Assembly: GCA_964373795.1 (NCBI GenBank)
Contig: CAYJVY010000005.1
Location: 23,846-55,845 of the forward strand
Length of the DNA: 32,000 nucleotides
Reading direction: 5' to 3'
Source: an uncultured archaeon
Lineage (GTDB): Archaea > Iainarchaeota > Iainarchaeia > Iainarchaeales > DATDZZ01
This document shows, in pieces, positions 15 to 32,000 of the stretch; positions within the stretch are counted from its first letter, which is position 1; each line of letters opens with the position of its first letter. A model generated the notes under the pieces. That model did not search any database. It saw only the letters and a program-made list of their open reading frames with translations, and had not been told where the DNA came from. Position numbers and translations under genes: made by a program.

Positions 15-3000
15 ATGCCTAAAGGATTAATTGAAGGCTTGTCAACTCAAGGACAAAAAGTTTACTTAGAGGCTTTAAAGAAATTAAAAAGAGGCGAGTC
101 AATAGATGCAGTTCTAGCTTACGTTGATTCTCAAGAAATAGATAAAGATCCAGATAAGGATAAAGAACAAAAAGACTTAATTAAGCAAAGATTGAAAGAA
201 CTTGTTTCAAAGATTGCAGAAGCAACATTTTGTTCAGCTGAAAAAGGAGAAGTTCAACCAACATTGTTTGACAAGGTTTACTTTAACTGGGATTATGGCA
301 AAATTTATTCCGAAAAAGAAAAAAATTGTTCTTCAGGAGAAATTTACTGCGACGGAGTTCAATTCTCAATTGAATTAACTAAAAGACAAAAACTAGTAAA
401 AGACGTAATGGAGACAACTGGTAAAAATTATTTAAGCAGTGCAGGAAATCTAGATGTAAACAAAGTAGCAGAAAGATGCCTTGTACACGACATTGGAAAA
501 ACAGGAAATGCAATAGATGATTTAAGTAAAAGCGATTGCACTCCTTACTTGAAATCCAACGAGTTTTGGAGATTTGGAAAACTAAGTTATAGTCCTTTCA
601 AAGGAAAAGCTTACTTCTTAAAAGATGATTTAAGATTACTTGAATGGAGTAAAAAAGAAGACTTAGACAGAGTTAAGAAAAGATTAAGTGAAGCAATTAC
701 TTTAATTAAAAGCGCTCCAGATTTAAATGCTTCAACAGACAAAGATCAACTTCTAAACATTCAATCAAGGTTTAATAAATTAAAAGAATCATTACTTGGA
801 GGAGGAACAAGTGGAGAAAAAGATCCTTTAAGTGAAAATGTTTTCATTGAATTCGATCAAGCACCAAACAGTCCTCAAGGATACAATATTGGAGACGACA
901 AAGTATTAGATAGTTTAAATATTCTTTCAGCAGATAAAAGTGGTTTAACTGCTCCATACAAGCAAAACCTTAGATTAATGAAACTAGATTTATTTATGCA
1001 GTTCTTAGAAGACATTTTAGAAAACTGTTTAGTTAATGTAAGCCAATGTAAAACTCCTTCATACAAGTTTTCAAGAACAAATCAGGCATACACTAAAACA
1101 ACTGGACAAAAAGCAATTCTAACAGGATCTGGAAGAGCAGTAGATGTAAATACTGATTTATTAAACCAAGTTTTAAGTGACTTGGAAGTAAAAATCGGAA
1201 TTCCAATTAATGTTCAAGACAAAGAAGTTCAAGACTTTGTATTAGGAAATGCAATGGATGCAATTAAATTACAAGACTCTCAAAGCAATTCATTCACTTA
1301 CAGGCAATTAAGAGATTTAAGTCAATTTAATTCATACTTAATAGCTGATAACTTAAATGAAGATCTAAGAGCAGACTTTAAAGCAAAGTATGGATTAGAT
1401 TCAAGCAATGATTTCGAAAACTGGAATATTTCAGGAGACACTAATACTCCAGGAAAATATGAAAGCGAAATAAATTATAGATTAACACTAAAAGAACCTT
1501 TTAGTGATAATAATGGTGAAATAAAATATTTTAGGATTTTAAAATCCAATAGCTTTGAAGAATTAAGAAAAGCTATTGTTTCATCCCAAGAAATAGAGTA
1601 TAATTCAATCACATTCAAACCAAAACCAAAACTTAAAGCAATAAATCCAACCACATTCCAAGATATTACATTCAACGAGTCAAATTTTAGTGCTTTTAAA
1701 ACATCTTTTAACAGTCAATTGAATGAAGAATTTAAGGAAGACAAAAACAACTTAACTGTTAAAGTAAGCTATAAGTTTTCGCCAACAATTAATTCAATTG
1801 AATACCTTGATGTTAATCGTAAACAGTATTTTTACAGAGTTGCACAACCAGATGCAAATATATTAAATATGGGAATAAACTCAGATCCATATTCCGGTAA
1901 AATTAAATTTAGAACAGATACAGTCTATTTTTCAGGGAATTTAGACAATAGTATGTTTGATCAAATAATTTTGCGTATGAAGGATGAGACTAATTCCTTT
2001 TTTGATAAAAAGGTGGATGACGATTTTAAACCATTCATTGGAGGAAATGCAGTAGATGTAAATGAAATTGGTAAAATAAAACGAAAAATTAAATCACAAG
2101 TTAATGACTTTAATGGAGCATTCATAATTACAGTTGAAGCAGACTTTAATGGACATGTAAGTGGAACTAAAAAGATTGTATGGACTAAAGAAGTTGCAAC
2201 TTATAATAATTTTATATCCTTATTAGACGGTCTCGACTATGAATCAGCTCAGTTAAGCTTTAGATCAAGAATACTTCCAACTGCTTCAAAGACTTCAGTG
2301 AATTTAACTCGCTTGGAAACAGATACTGCTTCAAGTGAAGTGCAAGACAAGTTATTATATTACTTGCCTTTAGATGGAAGTCTTGGAATTGAAAACGAGA
2401 AAAGCAAAAGAAATGGATATGGAGTTACATTTAGTTCTATAGAAGGATTTACTAAAATTCCAATTCAAAAAGAATTACAAGCAGTAACTGGAACTGCTAC
2501 AGTGAAAAAGGATTACTTAGTTTCAAAAGACGGAAATGCAGGGTTTACTGACTTTTTCATGAATTTTGAAACAAAAATTAATCAAACAACTGATGGACAA
2601 TTGTTAAGATTTGTTGGAGGAATAGGAACTGGAACTCCTACTACAGCAATTTATAGTCCTTCATTCCCAGTGCCTTTAACAATGAGAGTAAATGCTCCTA
2701 CTAGTGGAAGCCTTGCAAGCGTGTTTTATAATTTAAGCAAAGCAGCAAATGAAGTTGATTCAAGCGCAAATCCAAGTCCAGCTGCATTAGTTTCTTGGAA
2801 GGTTCATGAAAGAAGCCAAGTTGCTAGAACTCAACAAGAATTAGGAGTAACTGCAATGAGTTTTACTGGAGAAGACAAAGAAGTTAATCCAGATAAATTT
2901 TATTCAAGAGCAAGAAAAGAAGAAGGAGTTTTCAGTAAAACAGTGACTGAAGGATTTGAAGCACTTGGATTGCAATGGCAAGGAACTCTTCGCCCTGGAT

Positions 3001-3407
3001 TTATTGTATTCAATGGAATTGCATTTGTTCCTCAAGGAAAAGGAGAGCTTCAATTAATTCCAAATAAAAACTCTGTAAGTGATGCAAGCATTGAAACAGT
3101 TGCATTAGGAAGCAAGCCAGCTACTGTTAAAGCATCTCAAGGAGGAAAAGTTGAAGGAGTTGTTTCATTAGATCCAACTATTGTAAGCGGAGGATTTAGT
3201 AGAGATGCAGAACCATTAAAAGAAATAGCTGCAAAAATAAAGAACGGAGAAAACATTTCCTTAGAAGAAATAATCGGATTAAATAAAGCTGGGTTTTTGT
3301 GTGCAAAAGTTGCAAGAAATGAATTAACCTTAACATGGAATGAAAACAAAGTAATAGAAACAAGTGGATTAAAACAAAAAGCAGATGCATTACTTGCAAA
3401 AAGATAA
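15..3407 (+). CDS. Giant-protein family paralog 1: only the C-terminal-type module is visible and it may be 5'-truncated by the window edge
   Basis: Uninterrupted 1130-codon ORF with no in-frame stop between nt 3 and the ATG at 15, so the true N-terminus may lie upstream. It shares ordered motifs with the three downstream giants: FC..KG...NWDYGKI, YCDGVQFSI (nt 345-371), FNSYLIADNLNEDLRADF, PGKYESEI, LLYYLPLDGSLG...GYGVTF (from nt ~2352), SPSFPVPLTMRV. A T5 tract follows the stop. Confidence 0.85.
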   Translation: MPKGLIEGLSTQGQKVYLEALKKLKRGESIDAVLAYVDSQEIDKDPDKDKEQKDLIKQRLKELVSKIAEATFCSAEKGEVQPTLFDKVYFNWDYGKIYSEKEKNCSSGEIYCDGVQFSIELTKRQKLVKDVMETTGKNYLSSAGNLDVNKVAERCLVHDIGKTGNAIDDLSKSDCTPYLKSNEFWRFGKLSYSPFKGKAYFLKDDLRLLEWSKKEDLDRVKKRLSEAITLIKSAPDLNASTDKDQLLNIQSRFNKLKESLLGGGTSGEKDPLSENVFIEFDQAPNSPQGYNIGDDKVLDSLNILSADKSGLTAPYKQNLRLMKLDLFMQFLEDILENCLVNVSQCKTPSYKFSRTNQAYTKTTGQKAILTGSGRAVDVNTDLLNQVLSDLEVKIGIPINVQDKEVQDFVLGNAMDAIKLQDSQSNSFTYRQLRDLSQFNSYLIADNLNEDLRADFKAKYGLDSSNDFENWNISGDTNTPGKYESEINYRLTLKEPFSDNNGEIKYFRILKSNSFEELRKAIVSSQEIEYNSITFKPKPKLKAINPTTFQDITFNESNFSAFKTSFNSQLNEEFKEDKNNLTVKVSYKFSPTINSIEYLDVNRKQYFYRVAQPDANILNMGINSDPYSGKIKFRTDTVYFSGNLDNSMFDQIILRMKDETNSFFDKKVDDDFKPFIGGNAVDVNEIGKIKRKIKSQVNDFNGAFIITVEADFNGHVSGTKKIVWTKEVATYNNFISLLDGLDYESAQLSFRSRILPTASKTSVNLTRLETDTASSEVQDKLLYYLPLDGSLGIENEKSKRNGYGVTFSSIEGFTKIPIQKELQAVTGTATVKKDYLVSKDGNAGFTDFFMNFETKINQTTDGQLLRFVGGIGTGTPTTAIYSPSFPVPLTMRVNAPTSGSLASVFYNLSKAANEVDSSANPSPAALVSWKVHERSQVARTQQELGVTAMSFTGEDKEVNPDKFYSRARKEEGVFSKTVTEGFEALGLQWQGTLRPGFIVFNGIAFVPQGKGELQLIPNKNSVSDASIETVALGSKPATVKASQGGKVEGVVSLDPTIVSGGFSRDAEPLKEIAAKIKNGENISLEEIIGLNKAGFLCAKVARNELTLTWNENKVIETSGLKQKADALLAKR

Positions 3408-3658: not shown

Positions 3659-4057
3659 ATGCATTCAGAAAAAGAAATTAATGAAGCAGTTAAAAAATTA
3701 AAAAAAAATGATTTTATTCATTCAATCATTTTATTTGGTTCAAAGATTTCGGGAAAACCAATCAGAAGAGATGACATAGATTTATGCATAATTTTTGACT
3801 CTCAGAAAATGCCTTCAAACAAAGAGTTAGTAAAAATTTTGGGCTTGCTTGGAGAAAAATTTGATTTAAGTTTTTTCCATTTGCTTCCAATAAATGTTAG
3901 AAAAAAAGTTTTAGAAGAAGGAAAAATTCTTTTCACTAGAAACAAGCTTTATGTATTTGAATTAATTAAAGAAACTGATTTTGAATACCCCAAATATAAA
4001 AATTTTTTAGAGGAATTTAATAAGATTAGATTAAATAAAGTTATTTTAAAATCTTAA
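3659..4057 (+). CDS. mntA: Minimal nucleotidyltransferase (MNT/Pol-beta superfamily), antitoxin of a HEPN-MNT module
   Basis: ILFGSKISGKPIRRDDIDLCIIF matches the G-S-x(9-13)-D-x-D nucleotidyltransferase signature. The protein is 132 aa and its gene lies 11 nt upstream of a HEPN/DUF86 gene in the canonical MNT-then-HEPN order. Confidence 0.85.
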   Translation: MHSEKEINEAVKKLKKNDFIHSIILFGSKISGKPIRRDDIDLCIIFDSQKMPSNKELVKILGLLGEKFDLSFFHLLPINVRKKVLEEGKILFTRNKLYVFELIKETDFEYPKYKNFLEEFNKIRLNKVILKS

Positions 4058-4068
4058 AAGGCAAAAAA

Positions 4069-4485
4069 ATGGATAACAGAATAGAAGAAAAATTAACTAA
4101 AATCCAAGGCTATGTTGAACAACTAGAATTGATTTTACCTGAAACATTTGAAGAATATGAAAAAGATGAAAAAACAAAGTTTGCAAGCGAAAGGCTATTT
4201 GAACTATCTTGTGAAAATTTACTTGATGTTTGTTTTATGATTGTCTCAGAAAAGGGGAAAGAAAAACCTTTAGATAACAAAGATGCAATTCAAAAAATTG
4301 TTGGCCTAAAAGTTATTAGCAAAGAATTAGGAGAAAAATTAAAATCACTAATTGGCTTAAGAAACTTGCTTGTACACCAGTATGGAAAAATAGATGAAGA
4401 AATTGTTTTTGAACATTTTAAAACAGAATTACCAGACTTAACTGAATTCATTGAATCAGTTTTAAAGTACTTAAAAAATAAATAA
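4069..4485 (+). CDS. hepT: HEPN-domain (DUF86-type) toxin of a HEPN-MNT module
   Basis: GLRNLLVHQYGKID contains the R-x4-H (RNxxxHxY) HEPN RNase motif near the C-terminus. The protein is 138 aa and helical, and its gene is adjacent to the MNT gene. Confidence 0.85.
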   Translation: MDNRIEEKLTKIQGYVEQLELILPETFEEYEKDEKTKFASERLFELSCENLLDVCFMIVSEKGKEKPLDNKDAIQKIVGLKVISKELGEKLKSLIGLRNLLVHQYGKIDEEIVFEHFKTELPDLTEFIESVLKYLKNK

Positions 4486-4634: not shown

Positions 4635-4832
4635 ATGAAGGCTGTTACAAAAACTAGGGGTGTTGGCGGATCATTAATTGCAACTATTCCAAAAGAAATA
4701 GTTGAAGCAATTGGATTGAAGGAAAATGAAATAGTTGAAATTGATGTTAAAAAAATTAAAAAACACTTTTTTGGAACTTCTAAAGGAATTGGTTCTTTCA
4801 CTAAAAAAGACAGGCTTGAGACAAGATGGTAA
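4635..4832 (+). CDS. vapB: AbrB/SpoVT-fold antitoxin (VapB-type)
   Basis: GGSLIATIPKEIVEAIGLKENEIVEIDV is a typical swapped-hairpin AbrB/MazE/SpoVT motif. The protein is 65 aa. Its stop overlaps the start of the downstream PIN gene (ATGGTAA, 4826-4832). Confidence 0.8.
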   Translation: MKAVTKTRGVGGSLIATIPKEIVEAIGLKENEIVEIDVKKIKKHFFGTSKGIGSFTKKDRLETRW

Positions 4833-5227
4833 AAAGATACTTAATTGATACTTCTGCTTGGATTGATTATTTAAACGGCATTGAAAGAGCTAAACTAATT
4901 GATGAAATAATAGATGACAGGGAAAGTGAAATTTATTGTTCTGTAATTTCAATTGCAGAAATTGCCAGCAAATGCTTAAGACAATTGAAAAGCAAAGAAG
5001 AAGTTCTGCAAAACATTGAAAATATTTCCTCTATTTCAATTGTTCTTTCAATTGATAAAGAAATAAGTTTAATTGCTGGCTTGAAACAAGCTGAAGTTCG
5101 AGCAACTAATAAAGATTTTAGTTTGGCTAATGCGTTTATTTGGATTCAAGCAGAGCAAAAAAAATGCAAACTAATTACATGCGATTCTGATTTCAAAAAG
5201 TTTCCAGAAGTAGTAATATTAAAATAG
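4826..5227 (+). CDS. vapC: PIN-domain toxin (VapC-type)
   Basis: N-terminal YLIDTSAWIDYL (first acidic residue), SIAEIASK, and C-terminal LITCDSDFKKF match the PIN acidic quartet pattern. The protein is 133 aa and the gene is translationally coupled to the upstream antitoxin. Confidence 0.85.
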   Translation: MVKRYLIDTSAWIDYLNGIERAKLIDEIIDDRESEIYCSVISIAEIASKCLRQLKSKEEVLQNIENISSISIVLSIDKEISLIAGLKQAEVRATNKDFSLANAFIWIQAEQKKCKLITCDSDFKKFPEVVILK

Positions 5228-5596: not shown

Positions 5597-5989
5597 ATGG
5601 CTTGCCTTGACACTACTTTTTTAATAGATCTATTAAGGGGTAGAAAAGACATCAAAGAACTAAAAGATGAATTGAATAAGCACGAATCTAATTTGTATGT
5701 TGCTGCTCCTTCCGTAATGGAAATTTGGACTGGCGCAAATTTGAATGATTATCCAGAAAAAGAAAAATTTAAGATTAAATATCTTTTAGAGTCTTTCAAG
5801 GTTTTGAATTTTGATGAAAAGAGTGCAAAAGAGGCAGGAGAAATACAAGCAGAACTCATAAAAAAAGGTAAAATAATCCAAGTTCAAGACATAATGATTG
5901 CAGCTATTTCCATAACTAATGGGGAAAAAATTGTTACAAGAGACGAGGATTACATAAGAGTCAATGGATTAAAAGTTTTAAAGTACTAG
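5597..5989 (+). CDS. vapC: PIN-domain toxin (VapC-type)
   Basis: MACLDTTFLIDLL, SVMEIWTG, QDIMIAA and IVTRDEDY give the PIN acidic-residue pattern. The protein is 130 aa and the gene abuts the antitoxin gene. Confidence 0.85.
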   Translation: MACLDTTFLIDLLRGRKDIKELKDELNKHESNLYVAAPSVMEIWTGANLNDYPEKEKFKIKYLLESFKVLNFDEKSAKEAGEIQAELIKKGKIIQVQDIMIAAISITNGEKIVTRDEDYIRVNGLKVLKY

Positions 5990-6185: not shown

Positions 6186-9100
6186 GTGGGAATAGCTGAA
6201 GGAATTTCAAAGTTTTATTATTCTCTTGAAGCAAAATACTACGGAGTATTGGATAAAATTAATGAAAAAATTCCAATCTATGCATTAATTGATCCAATTG
6301 ATAGATTTGCTCCAAGTTTTGCATTACTAATACTAATTTTATTGGCCTTGCTTTTGTTTGCAGGAGTAACTTTATTGAATACTATCCCAATTCAAGTAAC
6401 TGAAAATGATTTAACTGTAATTGTTTTAGATGAAAAAGGAAGTGTATTAGAAGAAGCAGATGTAAAAGTAGTGTTTCAATCAAAGGATTTCCCTAAAAAA
6501 ACAAATAAAAAAGGAGAAGCAATTTTCAGTGTTCCAAGCAATGCACAATTAAGTATTGAAATATCTAAAGATAAATTTGAAGCAATTAAAAAAGAAATTA
6601 AATTTCAAGGAAAAAATCAAATCGAGCAAGTAAACTTAATTGCAGTAAAAGAAGAAGAACAACAAAAAATTTTCTTTGTAAAAGATGAAAGAGGAAAAGC
6701 ATTAAAGGATGCAAGAGTAACTTTTACTTGCAGTGATAAAAGTGCTAGGCAACCAGATGCTCAAACAACTGATTTTAGTGGAAAATTAAAAATAGCAGTT
6801 CCAAGTAATTGCGGAGAACTAACTTTTTCAGCTAGATTGGAAAAATTCAAAAACTTGGATGGAGTAAAGGCAGATAAAACAACAATTGTTTTACAGCCAG
6901 ATGAAGCAAGGGTTGGAAAAATAACTGTTGGAATAACTTCTAATGGAAAAAATTTGGATGGAGTAGAAGTTCATGTTTACAGATTTAATGAAGAAGAATT
7001 AGGCCCGGAAAAAACTGTTCACTCAGCAAATGGATTAGCAGTATTTGATAACTTGTTTGCAGGAGAATATATTGTAAGAGTTAATGCTGAGTCAGGGTTT
7101 GGTCCATTCAAGTCGGAAAAAATTTCTTTAACTTCAGGGCAAGAAAAAAATACTCAAGTAAAACTGGATAAAAAACCTATTGGAAAAATATTAGTGAAAG
7201 TTCTTCAAGAAAAAAATAAATTGCCTTTAGAAAAAGCTAAAGTGAAATTAAGGAAAGGAAGTGAAGAACTTGGGGCAACTGATTCAAATTCAGATGGGAT
7301 TGCAGTTTTTGATATAACTGAGGATTCGGAATACGAAGTAGTAGTTGATCATTCAGATTATTTAGTGAGAGCTGTTTCAGGAGTAAAAAAAGATTTGCTT
7401 AGAGAAATTTCTTTAGAGAAATTCACTGGAGAAAACGGTGGAACATTAAAAGTTAAAGTAGTGGATTCAAAAGGAAATTCAGTGCATGGAGCAATAGTTG
7501 CATTATATGACATGGACGCAAAACAAGTAAGCATTTACGAAGAACAATCAACTGATTTAAACGGAGTGGCAAGTTTTACTAGAGTGCAAAGCGGAAACTA
7601 TAAAGCTTTGGCTTTTAAGGAAAGCGCTAAAGGCTCTAGTGATGCCCAACGCTTTGATAGAAGGTTGTCTGCTCAAATTACTTTAAGAGCAACTTTGATA
7701 ATTGAAGACAGTCAAGTAGAAGTAATAGTTAAAGATGAAGAAGGAGTAGCTGTTTCTCAGGCAAGAGTTACATTGTTTGATGAATTTAATGACAAAGTAG
7801 TGGGATCGGATTTCACTAGTGCTGAAGGAAAAATTGTGTTTGAAAATATTCCTGCAGATAAAGCTGTTTACGTTAAAGTAACAAAAGAGAAAACTTCTTT
7901 TTATTCTGCTTCAAAAAAAGTTTTACCAAAAGAAACTGTTTCATTTAATGCATTCATTGAAAAAAGGCCTCCACTAGGAGAAGTGAAAGTAAAATTTTTA
8001 GGATTATATAAAGCAGGAGAAAAAGTTGAATCATTAAAAGAAGGAGTTGTAACAAATGTTGCAACAGGAGAAAGATATGCAGCTAGGTTTAGAGTAATTA
8101 TTCCTGAAGAAAATGATTACAGTGAAGTAGGCTTGCATGTTAGAACTGGAACAAAGGAAATTCTGGAAAAAGATTCTTTATTCATTAAAGCAATTAATGG
8201 GCCTTTAGCTGAAGTAAAAAAAGGATTATCTTTTAACCCTAGTTCAGGTTATCAAGAGGATTCAAAAAATGTTGCATTCAATGATGCGAAATGGGTTGAA
8301 TTTGTTTGGAACAAGCCAACTCCAGGAATATATGAATTTGAAACATTAATTGAAGTAAAACAAAACGCTAAACTAGATGAAAAGCTAAGCATTTTTTACA
8401 GAACATGGGCAATTGAAAAAGGAGATAGAAAAAGAGATCCTGAAATGCCTCCATCAAAAAATCATCCTTTTTACGATGACACTGAAGAAGTATTATATCA
8501 AGTAGGAATTACAACTTTATGTGATGACGCGTTTTGCTTTGATGCACAAATTCTAAATGTAGGAGAAAAAATAGTGAAATCCTTAGCAGAAGAATTAACT
8601 TACTCTGCAGATGTTTTTTCAAACTATAACTTGAAATTCAATTTATTGAATAACACGGAGTTTGGTGAAAACCCTCACACTAATGCGTTTTTGAGAATTA
8701 GAAACCCTGAAGAAAACCTTGTGTTTGAAAGATTTGAATTAAATTTAGGAGACAAGGGAAAGAAAAGCGGTACACTAAATGCTTCTGCTTTTGAAGATCA
8801 ACAAGTAGAAGTATTTGAAGCAAAAGAAAGATTGATTGCAGACATTGATTTTAAAACTCAAAAATCTGGAAACGGAGCAATAGTAATTGAATTAGTTTCC
8901 GATAACCAAGTAGTATTCAGTAAACAAATAATTGTAAACGTTTCTTCAACTAAAGACTTGGATGTAAAATTCGATCCAAGAGAACTTGCATCTGGAGTGC
9001 AAAACAAGTTAAGCATTGAAGTAAGAGACAAATTAACTGGAGTTGAAGTAGAGAAAGCATTAGTAAGCGTTTTAGACAGACATAAAATAGAGTTAACTAA

Positions 9101-12100
9101 GGGAAGAACTTCAAGGCAAGGAAAAGTTGAATTAAATTTACCTCCTCAAAACCCTGGAGACAAATTAATTTTGAAAACTCAAAAAGAATTATTTAATTCA
9201 GTTGAACAAGAAATTTTAGTGAAAAAAGAAATTGTTTCATTCAATCCTGCAACTGTAGGAGTAAGCGTTAACATTAAAACAGTTCAACAAAAAGATGAAA
9301 TAATTAATGCAAGAAATTTAACTAATTTTCCTGTAAAAATTAATTCAATTCAAGTAACTGGAAACTTTAAAGGAGTATTAAATGAAGAAGAAATGAATAA
9401 ATTCTTGAAACAATTTGAGGGAACTGTTTTAGAGCCAAGCGAATCAAAAGAATTAATTTTAAGAACAGTTATTTCAGAGGAAGGAAAATTATTGAATGAA
9501 AGAACTGATTTTAAGTCAACTTTAAGAATTGGAGTGGAAAACTTTGGACAAATTTGGAGCTTTGAATTACCTGTAACAATTGCTGTAGGCATTGGAGCAG
9601 AAGTAGAAAAACCTGATTGCTTGAAGTTAAGCAAAACTGAGTGGAAGATTTCAAGTGAAGGCCAACCAGTTTCAACTGAATTTGAAATAAAAAATGACTG
9701 CGTTGTTTCAGGGAAACCAATTCCTTTAAGAAACTTGCAAGTAAAATTTAATCCTCAAGGAAACATTTTAGGAGAATATTTATTAGAAATAAAAGAAGAC
9801 ACTATAACTAAAGCAAAAGTAAATGTTCGAAGCGCGTTCTTTAAAAACATTGTAGCAATCTTAGATCCAAATAAAAGATATTCAGCTGTTTTAAGTTTCA
9901 CTCCAAACGGAGGAGTAAATGGAACAGCTAAAGGAACACTTCTTTTAAGTGCAGAAAATAAATTGGATTCAGGAGATCAAGTAATTGAATCAAATCTTGA
10001 AACAGAGGTTCCAATAGTGAATTTAAGGGAATGCATTTCATTCTCAAATGATTTAGTTATAATAGATATTTCTAAACCAGAAGGAGAAAGAAAAGGATCT
10101 TTTAAAATTGATACTGATGGCTGTGGAGGAAAAACTGAATTCAAGTTTGATTCAAAGCTAGAAATTTTAACTGGAAAAAATGTTTCATTAAAAGAAAAAG
10201 ATTCAAAAGAAATTGAAGTATTTGCTGGAACAAATTTTGCAGGACAATATCCTTTAAGAATTGAAGTAAAGCCTTCTCATACAACTACTTTTAGGAATGC
10301 TAAAATGATTAGGGTTCGCTTGATTGATCCAAATAGTTGTGTAACATTAGATAAATTTGAATTCGAAGTATTCAAAGAACCTGGAAATGATTTCTCTGGA
10401 TATGATACAGCTGAGTTAACAAATAATTGTTTAGAGAAAAGAGTTCAAGTAAAATTAAACATGAAAAGCTGGAGAGATGCAATTGAAACAGGGGCTATTT
10501 GGGGAATAGCTGCATTTGCAGTTGGAACAGTTTCCAGAGCAGCAGCTGGAGATGAAGAAGAAAAAACAGACGGAGAAAAACCAAAAGATAAACAACCTGC
10601 AGCAGATCCTACAAAAACTCAAGTAACAGATCAGAATCAAACAGATCAAAATCAACAAAAAAAAGGAGGAGGAATTTTTGCGTGGATAACTAATGTATTG
10701 GGCCTTGGCGGAAGAGACAAAAATGCAGGCCCTGAACCAGCAACTCCTGGTAAGCCAGCAGGAGATAGTGATAATCAAACATCCGCAAGCATTCCACAAA
10801 CTGTTTTAAATAATCTTCCTTCAGGAGCCACAAATATAAATATAATTAACGAAACTATCAATGAATATAACGTAGAATATACATTGAACGGAGTAAAAAA
10901 AACACAAGTAATTGATCTTCAGGCTATAAGAACTGGAGTGACTTCAGGAGACGAACATCAAGCAGTGGCTGGAACTGCTTTGGTTTCAGGGATTACTGCT
11001 TTGGCTGGAGCTGAAGATACTGGAGCTCAATTAGGTGGAGCAGCAGGAGATGCTTTAATTGGAGGAGTCTCGAAAGGAATTGGAAACATGTTTAGTGGAA
11101 TGCTTGGAGGAACTGCTCCATGGGTTTCAGGTTTGGCTACTTTTGCTTTAATGACTGGATTAACTTATTTAAATCAAGGAACTACAACAGTTGAAACAAC
11201 TGTTAATGATATTGGGTTAACTCCTGATAAATTTAAAATGTTGAAGGAAACTGGAAAAGATGGAGACTTTGATGAAAGAGTTAGCGTTAAACCAGAAAAA
11301 GAATCTTTTAGACCAAATCCAAAAGATAATAGATTGAAAGTAAAGGAATTGGGTTTGACTTTTAAAAACGAGCAACCAGGAAAATGGACTGGAGATATTT
11401 TTAGCGTATTAGATTTGAAAGGAGATCAATGGCAGTATAACACTGATAAAGAATATAAAGCTTCTTCAGGGTTTTGGGATAGAGCAAAGAAAAGAATTTC
11501 AGAAAACAAAATAGATAAACAGCTTTTCCCATTCAATCAAAAATTCCATTTACAGTTAACTTCAGTGAATCCAAGAGATGTGAACTTTGAATTACCTCCT
11601 ACAGGGCCTGCATGTGAATTACTTGGAGGAGGAACAGGAGATACAGGACCAAACGCTGTTGGCTTGCCAAGAATTGGTTTAGCTCATGCAAAAGAAATTG
11701 GATGGAATTGGGACGACTTTCCAGCTCCTACAAGCACTAATCCAAAAGGCTTGCCAATTAATGGAAAGATTTGTGATGTAAGCGATTCAAATGACTTTAT
11801 TTACTGTGATGCAACTCAATTCAGTATAGCTGTTTTAAGAAAAGTTGAAACTCTAAGAAAATTTTTAGAGCAATCAAATAATTCATTTATTTGTCCTGCA
11901 GCAGAAAAAGCTGCTTCAACTAAAACAAATACAGTAAAAGAAGACAATGTAGGAATTAGCTTGCTTGAACCAGTAAAACAAGGAAACGATGTAAACATTG
12001 AAGTAGAAGTATTCAATAACAATCAACAACAAATGGAAGTAGAATTAATTGTAAAAGTTTCCGGGCCAAATTATTCAAAGGAAGAAAAAAAGCAATTAGG

Positions 12101-27813: not shown

Positions 27814-28209
27814 TCAAAACTTTATTCTTTTTATTTCAGAAACCCTATCAAAATCAGAGTCATCTGAAGCAATTTCTTTAATTTCACGTTCCTTCATTAT
27901 TGCTACATGAAATGCATCTCTGGGTTTTAAGTTATATTTTTCAATAAAATCTAAAGCTGAAAAAGGAATCATTGAATTTACTTCAATAATATCTGTATTA
28001 GGCAAAGAATAAATGTCTTGAATTGTTTCACGCAATAGAGAGTGTTTCTTGTTTTTAATGAGAACCCAAATTACTTCATCTAATACTAAAGCAGATGTTA
28101 CTGCTTTTCTTCCTTGTATAATAGATTCTTGAAGTTTTCTTGCATTTCCACCTTTTTCAGTTAAATCAAAGTTTGCTAAAATAAAAAAATTTGCGTCTAA
28201 ATAAATCAT
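27814..28209 (-). CDS. vapC: PIN-domain toxin (VapC-type)
   Basis: MIYLDANFFILA, LVLDEVIWVL, RDAFHVAIM and IASDDSDFDRV give the PIN acidic pattern. The gene overlaps its upstream antitoxin gene by 4 nt (28206-28209). Its stop lies only 7 nt from the stop of convergent giant 4. Confidence 0.85.
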   Translation of the reverse strand: MIYLDANFFILANFDLTEKGGNARKLQESIIQGRKAVTSALVLDEVIWVLIKNKKHSLLRETIQDIYSLPNTDIIEVNSMIPFSALDFIEKYNLKPRDAFHVAIMKEREIKEIASDDSDFDRVSEIKRIKF

Positions 28210-28457
28210 CTAAATTCCTCTTCATAAAGTTTGTCGCCATAAATCCATCCAAGTTTCTTAAGGTTTCCGCCATGCTTTTTTGCTCGTTCAGCCCATTTTT
28301 TAACTAAATCATCAGATACCAAAGGATGAATTTCAAGAATGTGTTCTTTAACTTCCATTAAAACATTTCCAGATTCTTTTATTCCAAGACTTTCTCTAAT
28401 AATTTTTGGAATAACTACTTGCCCTTTTGGGCCAACTCTAGTTTTAAATCTAACCAT
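28206..28457 (-). CDS. vapB: AbrB/SpoVT-fold antitoxin (VapB-type)
   Basis: GPKGQVVIPKIIRESLGIKESGNVLMEV is an AbrB/SpoVT swapped-hairpin motif. The protein is 83 aa and the gene is coupled to the PIN gene. Confidence 0.8.
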   Translation of the reverse strand: MVRFKTRVGPKGQVVIPKIIRESLGIKESGNVLMEVKEHILEIHPLVSDDLVKKWAERAKKHGGNLKKLGWIYGDKLYEEEFR

Positions 28458-28557: not shown

Positions 28558-28923
28558 ATGCTTCAATTAATGCCTTTATTATTTATTGGAGAATTTTTTT
28601 CAGATTTCACTTTAGTGTTAAAAATATTTGTTTTTCTTACAATTGTAAGCTTTGTTAAAAACCATGTAGGAAATAATGTTATTGCAATTGTAATAACTAT
28701 TTTGTTTAGCTGGTATGCATTGTTTGTAGCATTTGCTTTTTTTGGAACAATTTACTTGCTTTACACGTTATTGTTGCTAGGAGTAAGCGGAATTGTAATT
28801 GATTTCTTTTTTGTTTCACAGTCAGCTGGACATCAAAACTTGCAAGATAATTCCCCTGTTTCAAGTGGATATGATATTGTTAAAAGACAAGTAGCATCTC
28901 GACAAGCAATGATGAGAAGGTAA
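28558..28923 (+). CDS. Small polytopic membrane protein A (121 aa; the start may instead be the ATG at 28570)
   Basis: About 3 hydrophobic helices (FTLVLKIFVFLTIVSF, VIAIVITILFSWYALFVAFAFFG, IYLLYTLLLLGVSGIVIDFFFV) and a basic C-tail (KRQVASRQAMMRR). First gene of a tight same-strand cluster. Confidence 0.7.
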   Translation: MLQLMPLLFIGEFFSDFTLVLKIFVFLTIVSFVKNHVGNNVIAIVITILFSWYALFVAFAFFGTIYLLYTLLLLGVSGIVIDFFFVSQSAGHQNLQDNSPVSSGYDIVKRQVASRQAMMRR

Positions 28924-28930
28924 AAAAATT

Positions 28931-29275
28931 ATGAATGAAAAAGGTTTTGTTCCTCCAATGATTTTATTAATTGTAGGCGCATTTTTAATAGTTTTAATTA
29001 TTCCACCAATTTTGTTAACCTTGTTTCCCTTTGTTAGACTGATTTTCCAAATTGCAATGATTTTCATGATTTACATTATGGTTAAAGGATATATTGGTGA
29101 TGGCCCTTTAACTCTAATTATTTCAGGAATACTAATCTATTTTTTAGTTTTCAAATACACTTTGCTTACTTCAACTTTGTGGGTTTTTCAAACACTTTTA
29201 ATGTATTCATTTTTTTCAATGGTTATATGGGGAGTTGGAACTCAAACACCTCGTTTTTTTCAAAAAAGGGCTTGA
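28931..29275 (+). CDS. Small polytopic membrane protein B (114 aa)
   Basis: 3-4 hydrophobic helices and a basic C-tail (PRFFQKRA). The gene starts 7 nt after gene A, with AGGT upstream. Confidence 0.7.
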   Translation: MNEKGFVPPMILLIVGAFLIVLIIPPILLTLFPFVRLIFQIAMIFMIYIMVKGYIGDGPLTLIISGILIYFLVFKYTLLTSTLWVFQTLLMYSFFSMVIWGVGTQTPRFFQKRA

Positions 29276-29367
29276 AAACAATTCAATTAATGCCTTTAAC
29301 CATTTAACATAAGGATTATAAATGAAAAAAATAATGAATATATTATTGAATTAAATTAGATGATTAA

Positions 29368-29628
29368 ATGGCTTCAGCTGCATACATTGCTTCGTTTTTT
29401 GACAACATATACATTGCATTACTTTTATTTATTTTAATTTGGATTTTCAGTTGGGCTAAAGGAGCTTTAGGCAGCCCAAAACTAGCTATTTTATTTGCAT
29501 TAATAATTGTGTACTTAACTGTATACCAATTCCCTGAATTAGTGTGGATTGGAGTGGGATTGTTTTTGTTTGCAACATTTGGAAAAGACTTGCTTGCAAA
29601 TGTTAACTTTCATCAAGGAAGAAGATAA
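29368..29628 (+). CDS. Small polytopic membrane protein C (86 aa)
   Basis: About 3 hydrophobic helices and a basic C-terminus (HQGRR). It shares the K-[GN]-x-[VIL]-G-x3-[IL] segment with A and B. Confidence 0.65.
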   Translation: MASAAYIASFFDNIYIALLLFILIWIFSWAKGALGSPKLAILFALIIVYLTVYQFPELVWIGVGLFLFATFGKDLLANVNFHQGRR

Positions 29629-29630
29629 TT

Positions 29631-29942
29631 ATGGATGCATTTACTTTTTTAATGGCAATTGTTTTAATTATTTTAGGAGTATCCTTTGGAGAAAAATGGA
29701 TTGTGTTTGGAATAATTTTATTACTAATTTTAACTCAAAGATCAATTATTTTAAGTGTGTTATTAATTTTTGCTGGAGCATTGATTTACATTATTCAAGC
29801 ATTTGGTTTAAGTTATTTATGGCCAGTAGTAATTTTTGGATTAATTATTTTAGGTTTAATGTTTGGAATTCAACCTCAAGAACAAGCTCCTGAAATGTGG
29901 AGTCCAGAAGGAGGAGGCGGAGGATTACTTGGCGGGATTTAA
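29631..29942 (+). CDS. Small polytopic membrane protein D (103 aa) with a Gly-rich C-tail
   Basis: About 3 hydrophobic helices and a C-terminal QPQEQAPEMWSPEGGGGGLLGGI. The gene starts 2 nt after the stop of gene C. Confidence 0.7.
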   Translation: MDAFTFLMAIVLIILGVSFGEKWIVFGIILLLILTQRSIILSVLLIFAGALIYIIQAFGLSYLWPVVIFGLIILGLMFGIQPQEQAPEMWSPEGGGGGLLGGI

Positions 29943-30272
29943 TTGAATTTAGTAGTACTTCTATTACTTTTTTTAGCATTTCTTTACTTGATTTCAGTCA
30001 ATGAAGTTTTTCTGGCAATTGTTCTTGCAATATTGGGAATTGTATTAATTCTTTTCCCAAAAGGAGTTCAAGAAGAAATAAAACTAGTAAGTGAAGCAAA
30101 AGGAAGTTATCCAGACAAAGAAATCTTTTTAGAAGCCGCGCATAACTTAAACAAGCATTTAATGAATATTGGAACTCCAAAACAAAGATATGGAGAAAAA
30201 AGCAATTTAACTGAATTAATGCCTGACAACATTAACTATTTTTTCAAGCAATTAAGAAAATTATTCAAGTAA
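29943..30272 (+). CDS. Small membrane-anchored protein E (109 aa; TTG start)
   Basis: Two N-terminal hydrophobic helices (LVVLLLLFLAFLYLI, FLAIVLAILGIVLILF) precede a soluble tail of about 65 aa. The TTG start directly abuts the TAA of gene D, and there is no in-frame ATG until well inside the soluble part. Confidence 0.55.
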   Translation: MNLVVLLLLFLAFLYLISVNEVFLAIVLAILGIVLILFPKGVQEEIKLVSEAKGSYPDKEIFLEAAHNLNKHLMNIGTPKQRYGEKSNLTELMPDNINYFFKQLRKLFK

Positions 30273-30282
30273 GCTTTTCTTC

Positions 30283-30299
30283 CGACGTTTCGCTCGTCG
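30283..30299. terminator. GC-rich hairpin between convergent genes
   Basis: CGACG (30283-30287) / loop TTTCGCT / CGTCG (30295-30299) lies within a locally GC-rich stretch (30281-30307) between the stops at 30272 (+) and 30310 (-). Confidence 0.4.
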
Positions 30300-30309
30300 A
30301 ACGCGACAT

Positions 30310-30825
30310 TTACAACTTGTTTAAAATTTGTCTTTCAGTTTCAAGCAAGTCTTTTAAAAGTTTTTCAATGGATTGATTTGTTCCCTTCATTTCAGACAAC
30401 TTTGATTCTAGCTCTAATATTCTTGACTCGAATTGCTTTAAATCAGTTGAACTACTTTTAAGCAACATGCTTCGCAATTCATTTAATTGCTCTGATAAAT
30501 GGTCAAGCATTACTTGAGTAGCTGCATGCTTTGAATCATCTACATCTGAAAACCTTGTAGGCCCTAAAGATTCTGGTTCTTCAGATTCTGTTTCTGCTTC
30601 TTCTGATTCAGTTTCAGGTTCTGATTCTAGTTCAGGTTCAGGAGTTGCCTTTATTGCAGGAGATTTAACTCTAGTTTTTCCTCCGCCTTTAATTTCGCTT
30701 AAAATAGTTCTAGCATCTTTTTCAGTTAACCCAGAATCGAGTAATTCTTTAACAATTTCTTCTTCACTTAAACCTGCATCCAATAAAATTTTTGCTTGCT
30801 TTAAAAAAATTTCTTTTCCAGGCAT
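30310..30825 (-). CDS. Hypothetical protein: duplicated N-terminal helical motif, acidic PE/SE linker, C-terminal coiled coil
   Basis: 171-aa ORF with GAGTGAG (Shine-Dalgarno-like) 4 nt upstream of the ATG. It contains LLDAGLSEEEI / LLDSGLTEKDA, then EPELESEPETESEEAETESEEPES, then heptad-like LKQFESRILELESKLSEMK...LLKDLLETERQILNKL. Confidence 0.75.
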   Translation of the reverse strand: MPGKEIFLKQAKILLDAGLSEEEIVKELLDSGLTEKDARTILSEIKGGGKTRVKSPAIKATPEPELESEPETESEEAETESEEPESLGPTRFSDVDDSKHAATQVMLDHLSEQLNELRSMLLKSSSTDLKQFESRILELESKLSEMKGTNQSIEKLLKDLLETERQILNKL

Positions 30826-30920
30826 TTAACTCACTCAAAGCATAATTTTATGCCGGTATTTGACAACGGCGAAAGCTTAATTATTTATATTATTAACACT
30901 ATATATAGTTTACTTTTGAT

Positions 30921-31040
30921 TCAGCCTCGCGGTCACGCGCCTTGAACGCGCAAGGTCTCGTGCGTCGACACGAGGGCCTGCATAGGCCTTCAGCTTCGCC
31001 GGCTGATCGCTTCAGCTTCGCCTGATGAACGGTGGTGGAA
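30921..31040. ncRNA. GC-rich structured/repeat element (structured 5' leader, small RNA or protein-binding iteron array; strand unresolved)
   Basis: G+C is 76/120 in an AT-rich background. Three copies of TTCAGCYTCGC occur (30920-30930, 30989-30999, 31011-31021). Hairpins are CTCGTG/CACGAG (30957-30974), AGGGCC/GGCCTT (30973-30990, including one G-U pair) and CGCG/CGCG (30936-30950). A possible closing helix is TCAGCC (30921-30926) with GGCTGA (31001-31006). A TATA-like ACTATATATAG lies at 30898-30908 just upstream, and a GGTGGTGG Shine-Dalgarno motif lies at 31031-31038. Confidence 0.45.
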
Positions 31041-31045
31041 AAAAA

Positions 31046-32000
31046 ATGCATTTATTTAATTTAAGAAACGGTCCTTGGGAAATTCTTTTCGAAGGAACTC
31101 TTCATAGCCTTGAAACAGGAATTTACACTAATTCAAGAAAAGATTTTTTAATAATTATTTTAGACAAAGAAGGGCATGCAATTAAAGGCGCGTTAACCCA
31201 GTTTTACACTGTTTTTTTAGTTGAAGGAGAAATAGATTCATTAATTCAGGAAAAGGAAAGCATTGCGTTAATTAGAAGTGAAGGATTTGAAAAACACAAA
31301 TTTCTTTTAATTCCAAGTTCATCTGAATACATTGCTTGGAAGGAAAAAGAATTCATTGAAAAAACAAGTCAAATGTTTAAAGAATTAGAAGAATTAAAAG
31401 AAAAAACAAAGGAAACAGCAAAAAAATTAAAATTAAATGCTGTAAGCTTGAATGAATGCAAAACAGAAGTAAAAGAAGGATTCTTAAATCAACCATTGCT
31501 TGCTCCGTTAATTTCTTCTCAATTAAAAGAAAAAGAAACATCAAATGAAATTAAAATAGAGAAATCTTTAAGTGGAGAAGTAATTCTTGGCTTGAATAGA
31601 GAAAATATTTTAATTTCAGAACCTTTTTCATTATTTAAAAAAACAATTGCTTCAGGAAATGAGGACTTGAATAGAATTCATTTACTTCATGTATTAATTG
31701 AAGGACTATTGCTTTCAAACATTGACTGCATTGCATTTGAATTTGAAGAAAAATTTAAAGGATTAGATACTCCTACAAGCAAGTTAAATGAATTAAAAGC
31801 AAGCAAAATTGAAATAGAGCCAATAGGTTTTCCAGTGAAAAAATTTCAAGCAAAACAAGAAATAAAAGTTGACTTGAATTTATTAAAAGCTGAATCTTTA
31901 ATGGATTTATTTGGAGTAACAGATAAAGAATTAATTGAATTTCTTGAAGCAAGGTTAAGAGAAAAAGAACACACAGATTTACAAGAATTCATTCAAACAC
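31046..32000 (+). CDS. 3'-truncated ORF of unknown function (possible HerA/DUF87-like fold with degenerate P-loop)
   Basis: The ATG at 31046 is preceded by GGTGGTGG 7 nt upstream. I translated 318 codons by hand to the window end and found no stop. This ORF is absent from the supplied ORF track, presumably because it has no stop in the window. Confidence 0.75.
   Translation, partial: MHLFNLRNGPWEILFEGTLHSLETGIYTNSRKDFLIIILDKEGHAIKGALTQFYTVFLVEGEIDSLIQEKESIALIRSEGFEKHKFLLIPSSSEYIAWKEKEFIEKTSQMFKELEELKEKTKETAKKLKLNAVSLNECKTEVKEGFLNQPLLAPLISSQLKEKETSNEIKIEKSLSGEVILGLNRENILISEPFSLFKKTIASGNEDLNRIHLLHVLIEGLLLSNIDCIAFEFEEKFKGLDTPTSKLNELKASKIEIEPIGFPVKKFQAKQEIKVDLNLLKAESLMDLFGVTDKELIEFLEARLREKEHTDLQEFIQT

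Follow-up and report, generated by a model that had tools for sequence, protein, structure and literature searches.

A GC-rich cluster of short palindromes and direct repeats in the presumed 5' leader of a HerA-like ATPase gene of an uncultured archaeon

Bacterial REP/BIME sequences and the pneumococcal BOX elements are intergenic, hairpin-forming, modular sequences whose inner module can be tandemly repeated, as boxB is in BOX (PMC12306157). They often sit in the 5' or 3' untranslated regions of transcripts, where they alter mRNA stability or translation, and they form families defined by many copies per genome and, in the case of REPs, by the RAYT transposase. The GC clusters of yeast and other fungal mitochondria (GC42, for example) are short GC-rich palindromic blocks in very AT-rich spacers; they occur sporadically between relatives, merge into composites, vary in copy number, and can be cotranscribed with neighboring genes (Wu and Hao, 2015; PMC4478555). 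A third described system is archaeal. The 5'-UTR-derived noncoding RNAs (ncRNAs) of the Thermococcales are GC-rich and structured and occupy a promoter-to-open reading frame (ORF) position in AT-rich spacers, and in Pyrococcus abyssi 51 of the 73 GC-rich intergenic regions are known ncRNA genes (Phok et al., 2011; PMC3124441).

Here we describe a GC-rich island in a 32-kb stretch of DNA from an uncultured archaeon (the window). Its closest analogues would appear to be the non-autonomous GC-rich palindromic insertions of AT-rich genomes, that is, sequences of the REP/BOX type and mitochondrial GC clusters. With the former it has in common an intergenic location, hairpins, a modular build with a tandemly repeated inner module, and a placement in what is probably a leader, although there is no sequence similarity. 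The GC clusters are organellar, measure 30 to 60 nt, and number in the tens to hundreds, whereas the island lies on an archaeal chromosome, is about 120 nt in length, combines four different palindromes with direct repeats, and has one visible copy. The Thermococcales RNAs resemble it in composition and position, but their expression has been demonstrated and they are conserved across related species, whereas the island is absent from the relatives available. The island is of a known general kind, that of intergenic palindromic or structured-leader elements, and it belongs to no existing family.

The island lies within a 220-nt spacer between two divergent genes (Table 1). Its G+C content is 63.9% over positions 30920 to 31038 (17 A, 38 C, 38 G, and 26 T) and 76 of 121 nt over positions 30920 to 31040, against a window mean of 31.3% (standard deviation, 4.8% in 120-nt windows) and values of 16 to 31% in the other spacers. 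It is the highest GC peak of the 32 kb at 60, 100, and 120 nt and stands more than 6 standard deviations over the mean. The 11-mer TTCAGCYTCGC occurs exactly three times in the window, with starts at 30920, 30989, and 31011, giving spacings of 69 nt between boxes 1 and 2 and 22 nt between boxes 2 and 3. The two 22-nt tandem units are 86% identical in an ungapped comparison, with a 3-nt GGC indel between the copies. None of 2,000 dinucleotide shuffles of the island gave any 11-mer in three copies at one mismatch or fewer, and the extra matches obtained across the whole window by relaxing the 13-mer box to three mismatches were all antisense of coding sequence. A first-pass annotation of this DNA had reported the GC-rich island amid A+T, the three 11-mers, and the tandem unit with its GGC difference; each was found where it had been placed, and its coordinates and sequences were correct throughout.

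Table 1. Positions of the island's features and of the flanking genes, numbered from the first nucleotide of the window
Feature	Position	Strand	Description
Coiled-coil protein gene	30310-30825	-	171 aa; divergent, conserved syntenic partner of the ATPase gene
A/T-rich promoter block	30881-30908		TATA-like TTTATATT (30884-30891) and TATATATA (30900-30907); putative promoter
Box 1	30920-30930	+	TTCAGCCTCGC; TCAGCC forms the 5' side of the long-range helix
Hairpin 1	30936-30955		Exclusive forms CGCG-CCTTGAA-CGCG (30936-30950) and CCTTG-AACGCG-CAAGG (30940-30955)
Hairpin 2	30957-30974		CTCGTG-CGTCGA-CACGAG; 6 bp, perfect; SalI palindrome inside
Hairpin 3	30973-30990		Core GGCCT-GCAT-AGGCC (30975-30988)
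Tandem unit 1	30988-31009	+	CTTCAGCTTCGCCGGCTGATCG; holds box 2 (30989-30999), hairpin 4 (30990-31006), and GGCTGA (31001-31006)
Hairpin 4	30990-31006		TCAGC-TTCGCCG-GCTGA
Tandem unit 2	31010-31031	+	CTTCAGCTTCGCC---TGATGAACG; holds box 3 (31011-31021); UUCGCC tail predicted to pair with the Shine-Dalgarno motif
Shine-Dalgarno-like motif	31031-31038	+	GGTGGTGG, 7-10 nt before the ATG
HerA-like (DUF87) ATPase gene (P0001)	31046-32000 (5' part)	+	502 aa; island in its presumed 5' leader

The first-pass annotation had counted three adjacent hairpins. All three are present, and the count falls one short, since a fourth follows at 30990 to 31006. On the plus strand hairpin 3 reaches 8 bp by way of one G-U pair; on the minus strand hairpin 1 reads GCGCG-UUCAAGG-CGCGU, with a T-loop-like loop, and G-U pairs can lengthen its stem to 8 to 9 bp. 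At least four nonoverlapping perfect hairpins of at least 5 bp each, with at least 21 bp in total, occurred in 2 of 2,000 dinucleotide shuffles. The island's composition, repeats, and hairpins are far beyond chance.

The proposed 6-bp closing helix between 30921-30926 and 31001-31006, which can be extended to 30918-30926 and 31001-31008, closes the minimum-energy fold of both strands. Folding both strands, one of the checks put forward with that proposal, recovered the local dyads, and the global folding energy was not unusual against shuffles (z = -0.58 for the plus strand and -1.25 for the minus strand). The minimum-energy fold of the minus strand is a cloverleaf-like four-way junction with the T-loop-like arm and GNA-type loops. 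Statistical support thus extends to the repeats and the local dyads, which are real, and not to the cloverleaf as a whole.

Of the two flanking genes, the one on the plus strand is named here for its HerA/DUF87 central-domain match, which is weak. Its start at ATG 31046 is supported by alignment with three homologues (P0002 to P0004); another in-frame ATG, which lies within the island at 31025, would prepend MNGGGKK to the protein, and the three-homologue alignment favors 31046. Upstream of the divergent pair, genes for five small proteins predicted to lie in the membrane are accompanied by three giant ORFs in tandem, of 2,498, 2,344, and 2,340 aa (6186 to 27806); a further ORF of 1,130 aa occupies 15 to 3407. 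The giant ORFs have only faint matches to Ig-like or CarboxypepD_reg-type domains and probably encode surface proteins typical of DPANN genomes. The possibility that the island serves these genes as a DGR template or variable repeat was rejected, as the window holds no A-tolerant match to it.

Comparison with related loci revealed how restricted the island is. Among 5.8 billion proteins, the ATPase has only three detectable relatives, with 40, 32, and 26% identity, and a genome scan added a fourth related lineage, labeled Candidatus Iainarchaeum, which marks the host of the island as an archaeon of the DPANN type. Together these give four distinct loci (L151/152/156, L153/154, L155, and L157), in all of which small proteins are followed by a divergent gene of 120 to 190 aa and then by the ATPase. 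The cluster (28558 to 32000 in the window, and at L151, L153, L155, and L157) includes four to five small predicted membrane proteins of 86 to 121 aa, and its ATPase, of about 500 aa across the related loci, has only a weak HerA/DUF87 match there as well. We take this layout of small membrane proteins plus a HerA/VirB4-like ATPase to recall Ced-type DNA-transfer systems. At L151 a CARDB/BNR surface protein follows the gene cluster.

The relatives' spacers measure 95, 76, 55, and 223 nt and contain 23 to 29% G+C, with 60-nt maxima of 0.25 to 0.35 versus 0.70 here. Neither nhmmer nor blastn detected similarity to the island in the four syntenic spacers, and no homologue was present in the 41.7 kb of the relatives' contigs. 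Conservation in related genomes, another check proposed at the outset, was therefore not borne out: all four syntenic spacers are AT-rich and without the island, so that it is lineage specific and not an ancestral regulator of the gene pair. On the same ground (absence upstream of four of four orthologous genes), a conserved riboregulator or riboswitch of the ATPase gene was rejected. The island has thus been added, in this lineage, to a divergent promoter region that is in other respects ordinary and AT-rich.

The island is not an assembly artifact, since assemblies made independently from the short reads of three runs (Logan) all join it to its left flank. The three Logan contigs (L001 to L003) come from the same strain, with 0 to 4 mismatches, and carry no conservation information. 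All three end within the 22-nt tandem module, at 31014, 31014, and 31022. Position 31022 is the exact point of divergence between the units, unit 1 going on with G and unit 2 with T, and an end there is the de Bruijn branch point expected where one unit more is present in some genomes or the module recurs in a second context; the ends at 31014 do not fit a simple branch-point model. The assembly ends thus hint at copy-number variation or additional copies.

Several features bear on the strand that is transcribed. The A/T-rich promoter block is common to the divergent pair; apart from its two boxes, no TATA-like sequence precedes the ATPase gene, and the island itself has no A/T run. On its downstream side the sequence continues as GGTGGTGG-A8-ATG. 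The usual distance from an archaeal TATA box to the transcription start is 25 nt. The ATPase gene is intact and full length and so requires a promoter; since the sole TATA boxes lie to the left of the island, its mRNA would start at about 30914 to 30930 and carry the island in a leader of 115 to 130 nt. The element does lie between a TATA-like box and the Shine-Dalgarno (SD) motif of the ORF at 31046, as first described, and from the promoter, SD, and terminator context the plus strand is most likely transcribed as a structured 5' leader of about 115 to 130 nt. G-U-supported helix extensions number 3 to 5 on the minus strand and 1 to 3 on the plus strand. The earlier warning against calling the strand by pairing asymmetries was fair: as weak evidence, G-U pairs slightly favor the minus strand, whereas the genomic context favors the plus strand. 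Of the earlier suggestion of a structured 5' leader or riboregulator, the leader survives by position, and the conserved riboregulator does not, given the four syntenic relatives without the island.

The observations tentatively support a model, to which we assign a probability of roughly 0.45, in which a GC-rich palindrome cluster was inserted in this lineage and now forms part of the plus-strand 5' leader of the HerA-like ATPase mRNA. A cluster of short palindromes of about 115 to 120 nt, together with a duplicated 22-nt module, would have been inserted between the TATA region and the SD site of this conserved gene, or would have grown there by local duplication. The plus strand would be transcribed as the ATPase mRNA leader and would form a stack of stable hairpins, and any effect on leader stability or access to the SD site would be a by-product of those hairpins. 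An old neutral insert in an AT-biased genome should have decayed; the perfect stems and the G+C content of 64% imply either a recent arrival or selection on structure.

As in REP sequences, MITEs, and GC clusters, the island is GC-rich, hairpin forming, and intergenic, and its presence is sporadic (none of four syntenic relatives, these being distant, at 26 to 40% protein identity). With respect to copy number, a single copy was found in 32 kb, while the assembly breaks at 31014 and 31022 hint at a repeated or variable module. The sole inverted repeat, GAT(T)CAGCC at 30918 to 30926 and GGCTGATC at 31001 to 31008, is 6 to 9 bp long, and there is no clear AT-rich target-site duplication at the island. 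The proposed insertion is based on presence versus absence among relatives of 26 to 40% protein identity and not on the alignment of an empty site, and mobility is unproven, with a single copy in 32 kb and none in the collections scanned.

If the island were multicopy or variable in its number of units, it would establish that small non-autonomous palindromic elements exist in DPANN archaea, organisms with tiny AT-rich genomes whose repeat biology and gene regulation are, to our knowledge, almost unexplored, and it would show how an insertion makes a short leader long and structured. Were it single copy and functional, it would add a new RNA element, confined to one lineage, that controls a conserved membrane ATPase cluster. 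A more ambitious proposal, which we regard as doubtful, is that DPANN archaea have a family of modular, GC-rich palindrome clusters, of which the island would be the first example, as archaeal equivalents of the GC clusters of mitochondria and the BOX/REP elements of bacteria; its members would have a variable-number 22-nt module and insert in promoter-proximal leaders. In another version, the island would be a lineage-specific structured RNA controlling a Ced-like membrane ATPase system.

A dedicated RNA function is a live alternative that cannot be dismissed, because GC-rich intergenic regions in AT-rich archaea are often genuine ncRNAs. Foremost among such alternatives, unlikely as we judge it, is a stand-alone small structured RNA gene, frequent in archaeal islands of this type (PMC3124441) and here most attractive on the minus strand, where the four-way junction with its T-loop-like arm, the larger number of G-U-supported extensions, and the lower z score (-1.25) coincide. 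It conflicts with the tests of RNA class: Rfam 15, with H/ACA and C/D RNAs and group II fragments among its families, gave no match at gathering score over the whole window, and searches at E values of up to 10 on 501 and 141 nt returned chance matches of 9 to 18 bits to unrelated families. The best scores for the island were 9 to 14 bits, against family thresholds of 40 to 97, and the tRNA (RF00005), 5S, SRP, RNase P, riboswitch, and intron models were absent from the lists even at these E values. The island belongs to no known RNA family.

The terminator context also bears on this alternative. Archaeal RNA polymerase terminates at oligo-T, and no run of four or more T residues lies between the island and the next ORF on either strand; the T8 run of the minus strand is upstream of the island. 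A stand-alone small RNA is therefore disfavored on either strand, and with it the independent small RNA of the first-pass annotation. A promoter for the minus strand would, moreover, have to lie among the opening codons of the ATPase ORF, neither strand has a significant folding energy, and the relatives' contigs hold no homologue. An archaeal C/D box small RNA was rejected as well. The plus strand has CUGA at 31002 to 31005 and CUGAUGA at 31021 to 31027, but the boxes are not in a workable arrangement, with no C/D box at the required positions 12 nt upstream or downstream, and the minus strand is without UGAUGA.

Less likely again is a dedicated cis-regulatory leader, riboswitch-like or protein bound, in which GGCUGA would alternate among the boxes, while the SD motif would be occluded by the UUCGCC tails of boxes 2 and 3 and translation of the ATPase thereby gated. 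The element is placed exactly between promoter and SD, and the single GGCUGA at 31001 to 31006 has a potential pairing partner in each of the three boxes. The SD motif is paired with a probability of 0.77 in the plus-strand ensemble, chiefly to the UUCGCC tail of box 3. When the upstream sequence was shuffled, however, SD pairing was 0.74 ± 0.13, and 43% of the shuffles reached the observed value. The pairing is thus a generic effect of C-rich sequence adjoining a G-rich SD motif, and a switch based on SD sequestration was rejected, occlusion being no different from that in the shuffled controls. Both predicted conformers keep the SD motif paired, so that neither provides an evident ON state. 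The missing island upstream of all four orthologous genes and the lack of a riboswitch family match tell further against such a leader.

A role at the DNA level has a still lower standing. Here the island would be an operator or a set of iterons: a transcription factor or replication protein would recognize the TTCAGCYTCGC boxes, alone or together with the palindromes, and box 1 would overlap the region where transcription starts. Three near-identical direct repeats found only at the island would suit such a role, as would the 22-nt distance between boxes 2 and 3, about two helical turns, and the location of box 1 at 12 to 20 nt downstream of the TATA box, a typical position for archaeal repressors. 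The 69 nt between boxes 1 and 2, in contrast, is out of helical phase, the orthologous loci have no boxes, and four contiguous perfect hairpins of unrelated sequence would be left unexplained. The neighbors, a coiled-coil protein and an ATPase, have no DNA-binding or Rep domains. In the iteron-type array suggested from the first, the three direct repeats hold up, while the irregular spacing and the lack of an adjacent regulator or Rep gene leave the array itself no more than a possibility. Both the stand-alone small RNA and the operator array are possible but disfavored.

The tRNA-like reading of the first-pass annotation began from the resemblance of the first hairpin's minus strand to a T-arm, and in that respect it was accurate: the stem and loop at 30951 to 30935 fit the tRNA consensus of a 5-bp stem with G53-C61 and a UUCRANN loop (the chance of such a T-like loop being about 1% by a post hoc estimate), and the arm is followed by 7 nt plus A. 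The rest of the cloverleaf does not follow. The 7-mer, GACCGCG, has no CGCGGTC acceptor partner on that strand in the 32 kb; the "anticodon" hairpin in the middle is complete and self-paired, with a loop of 6 or 8 nt instead of 7 nt; the D-like arm has a loop of 4 to 6 nt (AUGC/UAUGCA) without GG; and an 8-nt linker takes the place of the two nucleotides at tRNA positions 8 and 9. Like a tRNA, the minus strand forms a four-way junction with one arm bearing a UUCRANN T-loop-like heptaloop; unlike one, it fails both the covariance model and ARAGORN, which found no tRNA gene in the window, and has no uninterrupted acceptor stem, no D loop, and no anticodon loop of 7 nt.

On these counts a canonical or intron-containing archaeal tRNA was rejected, and so was a split tRNA half of the Nanoarchaeum type, as the anticodon-like hairpin is complete and self-paired; with one arm alone resembling a tRNA, the earlier tRNA-like or split-tRNA interpretation is not upheld. 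That the island is a decayed tRNA gene, a split-tRNA half, or the tRNA-derived attachment-site remnant of an integrated element is very improbable and already largely refuted, since only the T-like stem and loop and their 7-nt-plus-A continuation speak for it, while both search programs, the self-contained middle hairpin, the D-like loop, the linker, the missing acceptor partner, and the lack of an integrase gene nearby speak against it. The case illustrates that a cloverleaf-like GC-rich island in mesophilic AT-rich archaea can turn out to be neither a tRNA nor a conserved RNA gene.

We also examined whether the island has coding potential or relatives elsewhere. It was rejected as a coding fragment, the sole frame open across it having no homologue: this 50-aa frame had no word-sharing candidate, and an exhaustive phmmer search gave one spurious match to an immunoglobulin-like repeat. 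The downstream gene's frame is open only from 31007 onward. A blastn search of plasmid and phage records with the island found no match, and four patterns, exact and gapped, gave only chance matches among viral contigs, in giant-virus, high-GC phage, and coding repeats. A two-box pattern, too permissive as it turned out, led in metagenome contigs to coding EAE-type repeats, with no homologue among the matches listed. No second copy of the island was found in the 32 kb, in the viral, plasmid, and phage collections scanned, or among the metagenome matches listed, and the further copies of the repeat that the first reading had proposed to look for are likewise absent from the window beyond the island itself.

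Among the unrelated metagenome contigs found through the two-box pattern, three contain arrays that are not homologous to the island. Contigs L127 (about 6870 to 6950) and L072 (about 1620 to 1700, minus strand) carry arrays of repeat units of about 76 nt with TTCAGCCTCGC-like boxes, and L044, from the human gut, carries units of about 132 nt with TTCAGCCTCGC-like boxes at 10657 to 11659 (8 positions listed, the count being given as 11).

The minus strand of boxes 2 and 3 (30991 to 31000 and 31013 to 31022) reads GCGAAGC, which as DNA forms an extraordinarily stable mini-hairpin (PMC13037366); this is a single post hoc resemblance within a repeated box, and box 1, which reads GCGAGGC on that strand, does not fit the motif. 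Elsewhere in the window, toxin-antitoxin genes are dense, with an MNT/HepT pair at 3659 to 4485, PIN-domain proteins at 4826 to 5227 and 5597 to 5989, and an AbrB/MazE-like plus PIN (VapBC-type) pair at 27814 to 28457. The 37-nt spacer between convergent genes at 30273 to 30309 has 54% G+C and a perfect hairpin, CGACG-TTTCGCT-CGTCG (30284 to 30300); it has CGTCGA and GAACGCG in common with the island, at a frequency compatible with chance. Within the 171-aa gene, positions 30569 to 30642 form an imperfect tandem repeat with periods of 6 to 27 nt, which encodes an acidic low-complexity stretch of the SEPE/TESE type.
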